Part shown: one piece after another, positions 52,035 to 52,170 of the stretch
Layout of the letters: every line of letters begins with the position of its first letter
Numbering within the stretch: the stretch's first letter is position 1
DNA from: an uncultured bacterium
GTDB lineage: Bacteria > JADJOY01
Direction of reading: 5' to 3'
Length of the DNA stretch: 64,000 nt
Assembly (NCBI GenBank): GCA_964650975.1
Contig: CAZYWA010000001.1
Span: forward strand, 6,980 to 70,979
Notes under the pieces: model-generated
Told to the model about the DNA's origin: nothing
What the model saw: the letters and a program-made list of their open reading frames with translations, nothing else
The model's database searches: none
Made by a program: the position numbers and the translations under genes

Positions 52035-52052
52035 GACCGTCGGGACGATTCG

Positions 52053-52073
52053 TTTTTGACGATTCGTCAAAAA
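52053..52073. promoter_or_regulatory. Perfect 21 bp palindrome TTTTTGACGATTCGTCAAAAA about 20 nt upstream of the Rieske oxygenase start, with an extra GACGATTCG direct repeat on its left. Candidate operator.
   Basis: Read directly from the sequence. AT-rich island in a 70% GC context. Confidence 0.5.
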
Positions 52074-52170
52074 CCAACTTAGCCCTGGAAAAGAGGGCAC
52101 GCAAGGAGTCCCGGCGTGGCCACGCGCCACGACGATCCGCACGCGTCGTGCGCCGGCTGCGCGAGGAGAT

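Follow-up and report, generated by a model that had tools for sequence, protein, structure and literature searches.

A conserved palindrome as the predicted operator of a TetR-family regulator at a divergent acyl-CoA dehydrogenase gene and a KshA-like Rieske oxygenase operon in an uncultured bacterium

KstR and KstR2 are TetR repressors of steroid catabolism, and the genes under their control include kshA and pairs of fadE acyl-CoA dehydrogenase genes. The operator motifs are TnnAACnnGTTnnA for KstR and AnCAAGnnCTTGnT for KstR2. FadR, DesT, FasR, and BkaR are TetR repressors of β-oxidation-type genes and are released by CoA thioesters. Mycobacterial BkaR regulates its own gene, and the promoters of this gene and of the other genes under its control contain its palindromic motif (PMC3920632). 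The motif of EthR is larger and more complex, is present in multiple copies, and is not a classical palindrome (PMC4482099). DitZ has been described as a diiron-dependent diterpenoid hydroxylase (PMC13154177).

We analyzed a 64,000-nucleotide stretch of DNA from an uncultured bacterium (hereafter, the window), which has a G+C content of 65–73%. Two instances of a palindromic motif were found in it, one (O1) between a TetR-family regulator gene and a divergent acyl-CoA dehydrogenase (ACAD) gene and one (O2) in front of a KshA-like Rieske oxygenase gene. Judging from the comparative sequence evidence, we are confident that O1 and O2 are operators of the adjacent TetR protein, which would repress itself, the divergent ACAD gene, and the Rieske operon.

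The gene map draws on sequence searches against Pfam, NCBIfam, and the PDB, on a publicly available gene call for this DNA (L001), which is of metagenomic origin, and on gene calling by frame-specific GC scoring. The TetR gene (46159–46845, minus strand; 228 aa) is followed downstream by a Fur-family gene (45627–46049, minus strand; Pfam), which is 110 bp away, and by a gene for an HTTM-domain protein with a vitamin-K-dependent gamma-carboxylase-like domain (43872–45422, minus strand). The predicted divergent target of O1 (46887–48014, plus strand) encodes an ACAD resembling pimD-small and IpdE2 (Pfam and NCBIfam). Below O2 lie the KshA-like Rieske oxygenase gene (51087–52034, minus strand; Pfam Rieske and KshA_C; KshA 2zyl in the PDB with E = 4.4e-48), a gene for a 437-aa protein (49630–50943, minus strand; PF04909), and a gene for a 287-aa Amidohydro_2 protein (48555–49418, minus strand; Pfam and PDB 3irs). 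A YcxB-like gene (52171–52812, minus strand) and a pimC-large-like ACAD gene (52876–54066, minus strand) were mapped on the other side of O2.

The preliminary description of this DNA had taken the gene after the Rieske gene for an amidohydrolase, but its product is better read as a DitZ-like, amidohydrolase-related dinuclear oxygenase. It matched DitZ (8uyr) with E = 2.8e-106 and PtmU3 with E = 5.8e-45, and this close homology suggests that the protein is probably a diiron hydroxylase and not a hydrolase. The order of the Rieske, DitZ-like, and Amidohydro_2 genes is the same in the close relative L004, where the Rieske and DitZ-like genes are separated by 16 bp (143 bp in the window), and no terminator-like site was found in the gaps between the three genes. 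Co-transcription of the Rieske and DitZ-like genes is likely, and the Amidohydro_2 gene is possibly a third member of the operon. A G+C-rich hairpin lacking a T-run (GGCTGCG-AGAGAC-CGCAGCC, 50975–51000, minus strand) is also present in the gap between the Rieske and DitZ-like genes.

The two ACADs of the window (46887–48014 and 52876–54066) resemble the small and large subunits, respectively, of heteromeric acyl-CoA dehydrogenases. The two subunit genes are neighbors and convergent in L005, L010, and L018, where both are behind motif sites. In the window, the large-subunit gene is 5 kb from the small-subunit gene, and no site was found at its operon.

The TetR protein carries a helix-turn-helix domain (PF00440 TetR_N, E = 4.5e-9, residues 49–92 of the long open reading frame) and a C-terminal TetR_C_38 domain (PF19352, E = 2.8e-22), while no NCBIfam model matched it at the model's cut-off. 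AlphaFold2, run on an alignment of the family, gave a confident TetR fold (pLDDT of 89.8) with high confidence for the DNA-binding helices. The top Foldseek matches of this structure were all TetR-family proteins, EthR being first (TM of 0.71–0.73, 19–21% identity), followed by proteins of the FasR, FadR, and DesT types. The best PDB sequence matches were AvaR1 (1e-8) and, when a profile was used, EthR (7e-10).

The start of the TetR gene had been placed at 46875, which left a gap of 11 bp to the ACAD gene. The TTG at 46875 is merely the start of the longest open reading frame, and the public gene call (L001, 228 aa), the frame-specific GC scoring, and the L004 orthologue agreed on a start at GTG 46845 (or 46839). 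The intergenic region is thus 41 bp (46846–46886) rather than 11 bp, and O1 is located wholly inside it, that is, in the regulator's own promoter region and that of the divergent gene. Neither the TetR gene nor the ACAD gene, 41 bp apart, has an obvious Shine-Dalgarno sequence, and L004 has about 46 nt more than the window before the ACAD start, which suggests leaderless or near-leaderless mRNAs in the lineage of the window.

O2 (TTTTTGACGATTCGTCAAAAA, 52053–52073, no strand assigned) is a perfect palindrome, TTTTTGACGA-T-TCGTCAAAAA, as had been described, and its perfect symmetry extends further to 23 bp (52052–52074, G...C). Its length of 21–23 bp is within the range of short palindromic operators (about 15–28 bp). 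The distance to the Rieske ATG (52034), earlier given as about 20 nt, was measured to be 18 nt (52035–52052). The direct repeat reported to the left of the palindrome was also found, with GACGATTCGT at 52044–52053 and 52058–52067, 14 bp apart. The second copy lies inside O2, while the extra copy (52044–52053, no strand assigned) lies between O2 and the Rieske ATG; the extra copy has no equivalent in L004 and did not score as a site with the weight matrix described below. It is probably a lineage-specific duplication. The leader below O2 is 18 nt long in the window, without a clear Shine-Dalgarno sequence, and 40 nt long in L004, with GAGG, and it looks as if the duplication accompanied the shortening of the leader from 40 to 18 nt and the loss of the GAGG ribosome-binding site.

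In the alignment with L004, O2 was kept exactly, while the flanking DNA had diverged. The region in front of the Rieske gene has GGCTAAG(T/G)T, two further bases, and then the palindrome in both the window and L004. This stretch includes a candidate -10-like hexamer of the Rieske gene (TAAGTT, 52076–52081, minus strand), 2 nt upstream of O2, which together with TTGCGT (52099–52104) at a 17-nt spacer forms a candidate promoter; the counterparts in L004 are TAAGGT and TTGCGC at equal spacing. Such a promoter would place O2 at about +1 to +25. In L085 and L087, two loci carrying the exact 21-mer, a TAnnGT hexamer is present three bases upstream of it.

O1 (TTTTTGACGATGTATCAAATT, 46858–46878, no strand assigned) is an asymmetric version of the same motif. 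The preliminary description had reported a 13-mer shared by the two sites; CGTTTTTGACGAT does recur exactly at 52051–52063 and in the TetR/ACAD region, where its position is 46856–46868 and not, one base further, 46857–46869. The right half-site of O1 had been called degenerate, and it does differ (TATCA for CGTCA), yet it is a recurrent, tolerated variant, and the whole site scored 24.9 bits compared with 26.6 bits for O2. Four lineages (the window, L004, L005, and L010) share the asymmetric core TGATACATCGTCA without any difference, and this identity suggests that the variant half-site may double as a promoter element. A candidate ACAD promoter (TTGCAG-16 nt-TCAAAT, 46850–46877, plus strand) was read from the sequence, with O1 filling its spacer. 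The block GAGGTTGCAGCGTTTTTGACGATGTATCAAATTC of the divergent region is identical in the window and L004, and the operator was the sole conserved block in alignments of orthologous intergenic regions. A strict sigma-70 scan around both sites did not call the candidate promoter hexamers, which are weak, and they are therefore proposed from their conservation between the window and L004.

To relate the two sites to other organisms, one genome per species was scanned with an alignment of TetR homologues. This gave 80 loci (35–81% identity), each taken with flanking sequence of at most 10 kb, from Myxococcota, Acidimicrobiia, other Actinomycetota (Actinomycetes), marine Gammaproteobacteria of the Haliea/Halioglobus type, and Streptomyces. 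The TetR homologues bearing a name were from Myxococcota metagenome-assembled genomes (MAGs). The search of the loci for the core of the O2 palindrome gave a recurring dyad, wwTCTGACG-N3-CGTCAGAww. In the regions upstream of the TetR genes, an exact count of 5-mer palindromes was only weakly enriched (CTGAC-N5-GTCAG in 8 regions; control mean, 0.65), one mismatch being present in most sites, and a weight matrix was used instead. The 21-bp matrix was built from the loci of the other organisms alone and iteratively refined, and its consensus, aATCTGACGgnCCGTCAGATt, is symmetric. When it was run over the 64-kb window, O2 ranked first (26.6 bits) and O1 second, and the next best score was 7.6 bits, so the two sites are the sole instances of the motif in the window, and both are good ones.

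At a cut-off of at least 11 bits, the 1.25 Mb of loci, which were chosen for carrying the TetR gene and were compared with the window and with shuffled sequence, held 106 sites, while 10 were found in the shuffled sequence. Together with the two of the window, 99 of 108 sites were intergenic, even though called coding regions made up at least 75% of the total, and the median distance from the site center to the downstream start codon was 60 nt. Site density was 0.84 per kb from -400 to +60 of the TetR start and 0.02–0.12 per kb elsewhere in the loci (a difference of about 10-fold), and a site was present in this interval in 29 of 78 loci. At least one site was found in 58 of 80 loci, and the other 22 had none that reached 11 bits. 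No strong sites were found with the homologues on alphaproteobacterial plasmids (34–38% identity; Novosphingobium resinovorum pSA2 and Azospirillum B510) despite comparable ACAD/thiolase clusters, and the motif therefore does not extend to these homologues or has diverged there.

These comparisons bear on whether the shared 13-mer needs a dedicated regulator at all, since it could be a common core-promoter element or a chance match. Five of the six bases of TTGACG agree with the -35 hexamer of sigma-70, and each of the two sites occupies a promoter position. However, no usable -10 hexamer follows either TTGACG at 16–18 nt, and neither the dyad symmetry nor the conservation of CTGACG...CGTCAG in other phyla fits a -35 element. 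As for chance, the 21-mer with up to three mismatches had no match in 100 dinucleotide-preserving shuffles of the window. We regard a core-promoter element or a chance match as the least probable of the alternatives weighed here.

O2 could also act as RNA, either as a 5'-leader hairpin stabilizing the Rieske mRNA or modulating its translation or as a terminator of the upstream YcxB-like gene. A hairpin of 10 bp is predicted for the leader (-18.7 kcal/mol, z = -1.9), and O2 is situated between two genes of the same strand, YcxB-like upstream and Rieske downstream. On the other hand, L004 keeps the palindrome although its upstream gene there is a divergent ferritin-like gene, O1 pairs imperfectly, and Rfam gave no match at the site and a single chance-level match elsewhere in the region. 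Across the sites, one-sided deviations of a half-site numbered 148 and complementary double changes 17, which indicates that base pairing is not maintained and fits a protein-binding dyad. A terminator is further opposed by the lack of a T-run after the stem, and a scan of 51950–52250 found none. An intrinsic terminator was also considered as a class for O2; its stem is AT-rich rather than G+C-rich, with T5 before and A5 after it. A function of O2 at the RNA level is very improbable, and a site bound by protein, namely by the TetR regulator, is the reading we retain.

The genes directly behind the sites fell into recurring clusters. They most often encoded TetR (27), short-chain dehydrogenase/reductase (SDR; 13), ACAD (12), DitZ-like Amidohydro_2 protein (10), and acyl-CoA synthetase (9), followed by family III CoA-transferase (6), Ltp2-like thiolase (6), ChsH2-type OB-fold protein (5), KshA-like Rieske oxygenase (3), and MaoC-type hydratase (3). 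Besides the window, Rieske homologues are behind a site in L004 and L012, the latter having the order site, Rieske, and TetR in one direction throughout. In 33 of 80 loci, a DitZ-like homologue is encoded no more than 10 kb from the TetR gene.

The recognition helix of the TetR protein and the outer bases of the operator vary together. The helix reads TSP(A/G)TFY-H-YF, with histidine, in the window and in L004, L005, L006, L007, L010, L018, L027, and L052, and it has glutamine (...FY-Q-YF) in the remaining loci. Among loci with a site scoring 18 bits or more, the base at operator position ±7 was T (TTGACG, as in the window) in 6 of 8 loci with FYHYF and in 2 of 43 with FYQYF, the other glutamine loci having C at this position (CTGACG). 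The association had a Fisher p of 4e-5 per locus, not corrected for phylogeny, and it follows a clade, so part of it may reflect shared ancestry. Such covariation is what direct base contact by the TetR protein would be expected to produce, and the pairing of histidine with T at ±7 explains the AT-rich look of the motif version in the window.

The same data bear on whether a different regulator binds the palindrome, namely the Fur-family protein encoded at 45627–46049 or a protein of the FNR/CRP type. The Fur-family gene follows the TetR gene at a distance of 110 bp, and a Fur box is an AT-rich palindrome, but a Fur homologue was present in just one of the 80 TetR loci, so Fur is not the conserved partner. 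As regards FNR/CRP, TTGAC-N5-GTCAA resembles TTGAT-N4-ATCAA and O1 ends in ATCAA, an FNR-like half-site; against this, G/C is conserved at ±2 and ±7 of the family consensus, CTGACG-N3-CGTCAG, and its pentamers are spaced by N5, not N4. In addition, the clustering of the sites at the TetR promoter and their covariation with the recognition helix of the TetR protein speak against another regulator, and its binding is accordingly very improbable. When the motif was compared with site classes, a Fur box was set aside on its co-occurrence with a Fur-family regulator (one of 80 loci), and an FNR/CRP-type site (TTGAT-N4-ATCAA or TGTGA-N6-TCACA) on its spacing, the motif being pentamer-N5-pentamer. 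L004 keeps the Fur gene, and its ferritin-like gene is divergent from the Rieske promoter.

The proposal in the preliminary description that one TetR operator is common to the TetR/ACAD promoter and the Rieske operon is thus supported by the sites in 58 of 80 loci from several phyla, their density at the TetR promoter, and the intergenic position of 99 of 108 sites. It is further backed by the recurrence of ACAD, Rieske, and DitZ-like genes downstream and by the covariation of the recognition helix.

The exact 21-mer of O2 was also found in six metagenome contigs, most of which are too short to define further targets. Four of the six are G+C-rich, and in these the 21-mer is flanked by G on the left and CG on the right, which is also the case in L004, while the window has G before and CC after it. 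In one of these four, L087, an acyl-CoA synthetase gene precedes the 21-mer and an Amidohydro_2-like gene comes after it. In L089 (Ga0169931_10000530, 3912–3942), an unrelated contig with a G+C content of 62%, it is located 8 nt upstream of a different TetR gene, whose product has similarity to the TetR protein of the window restricted to the DNA-binding domain (42% identity over 62 residues). This site reflects either a DNA-binding specificity common to different TetR subfamilies or coincidence. It also adjoins a class-3 lipase gene.

In several loci, two sites are 29–94 bp apart in one intergenic region: L015 (9875/9952), L037 (7358/7452), L043 (7357/7450), L081 (6935/7015), L080 (13147/13176), and L031 (8425/8490). 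This suggests paired operators in some lineages, possibly bound cooperatively. L043 also contains CGTCCCGACGAGGCGTCAGCCGA three times at an exact spacing of 89 bp (about 4320–4520); this tandem repeat holds a near-match to the operator core and is unrelated to promoters.

In the mechanism that we propose, a dimer of the TetR protein would read the dyad T(T/C)TGACG-N3-CGTCA(A/G)A. As O1 fills the 41-bp divergent region, one dimer bound there would block both the TetR's own promoter and the ACAD promoter. O2 is just downstream of the -10-like hexamer, and a dimer on it would block initiation of the putative unit of Rieske oxygenase, DitZ-like hydroxylase, and amidohydrolase. Release of the repressor would follow from the binding of an inducer to its C-terminal domain, and the likeliest inducer is the substrate of the pathway or a CoA thioester thereof.

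The mechanism itself would be ordinary, a textbook type of switch in which an autoregulated TetR repressor acts at a palindromic operator. What is useful is that a regulator and an operator have been paired, in a way open to testing, for a TetR subfamily. Our literature searches found no publication on the motif or on the TetR_C_38/PF19352 domain family, and nothing relevant on a TetR regulator with ACAD, amidohydrolase, and Rieske genes, on one with the dit cluster, or on one with dehydroabietate. No characterized member of the TetR_C_38 subfamily was thus found, and the regulator/operator pairing and its breadth across phyla are new. The operator appears to be conserved in several phyla beside genes for degrading ring-shaped lipids. 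We advance tentatively, with slightly less than even confidence, the broader view that an undescribed cross-phylum regulon exists in uncultured Myxococcota, Acidimicrobiia, Actinomycetes, and marine Gammaproteobacteria, in which TetR_C_38 regulators, through TCTGACG-N3-CGTCAGA, switch on DitZ-like hydroxylases, KshA-like oxygenases, and steroid-type β-oxidation enzymes. If so, the motif would be the marker of an unknown pathway acting on polycyclic terpenoid or steroid-like acids, and a biosensor for the substrate of this pathway could be made from the regulator. The motif joins DitZ-like dinuclear oxygenases, KshA-like Rieske oxygenases, and heteromeric ACADs in what would be one co-regulated catabolic module, and its conservation suffices for regulon prediction in MAGs of several phyla. 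The covariation of His/Gln with T/C is a specific and checkable prediction of a protein–DNA contact, and the identity of the inducer would reveal the substrate of a pathway widespread in uncultured bacteria.

Compared with the known systems, EthR of M. tuberculosis (Rv3855) is the closest solved structure, and it is likewise a TetR protein whose gene is divergent from that of an oxidative enzyme, the monooxygenase gene ethA. The identity of 19–21% and the compact dyad of 17–21 bp distinguish the present regulator from it. Bacillus and Thermus FadR, DesT, and FasR are also among the structural neighbors. The sequence similarity to these regulators and to BkaR is confined to the helix-turn-helix, and their motifs differ from the one found here, the BkaR core being GTTA(N)T(N4)A(N)TAAC. 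The catabolism of abietane diterpenoids (dit) is related through the DitZ-like gene behind O2, which is a close homologue of DitZ, but its partner here is a KshA-like oxygenase and not a small Rieske ferredoxin; our literature search found no paper tying DitZ genes to a TetR operator.

A parallel in organization exists with KstR and KstR2 of Mycobacterium and Rhodococcus, which, as at this locus, are autoregulated TetR proteins with a short palindromic operator before several operons and which control a KshA-type Rieske oxygenase, heteromeric ACADs, Ltp2/ChsH2-type enzymes, and CoA ligases. Their operators are different from the consensus TCTGACG-N3-CGTCAGA and from the sites of the window (TTTGACGAnTCGTCAAA), and no chain named KstR or KstR2 was among the PDB sequence matches of the TetR protein, which speaks against orthology to either. 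The C-terminal TetR_C_38 domain, the other host phyla, and the DitZ-like hydroxylase among the predicted targets set this TetR regulator apart from both.
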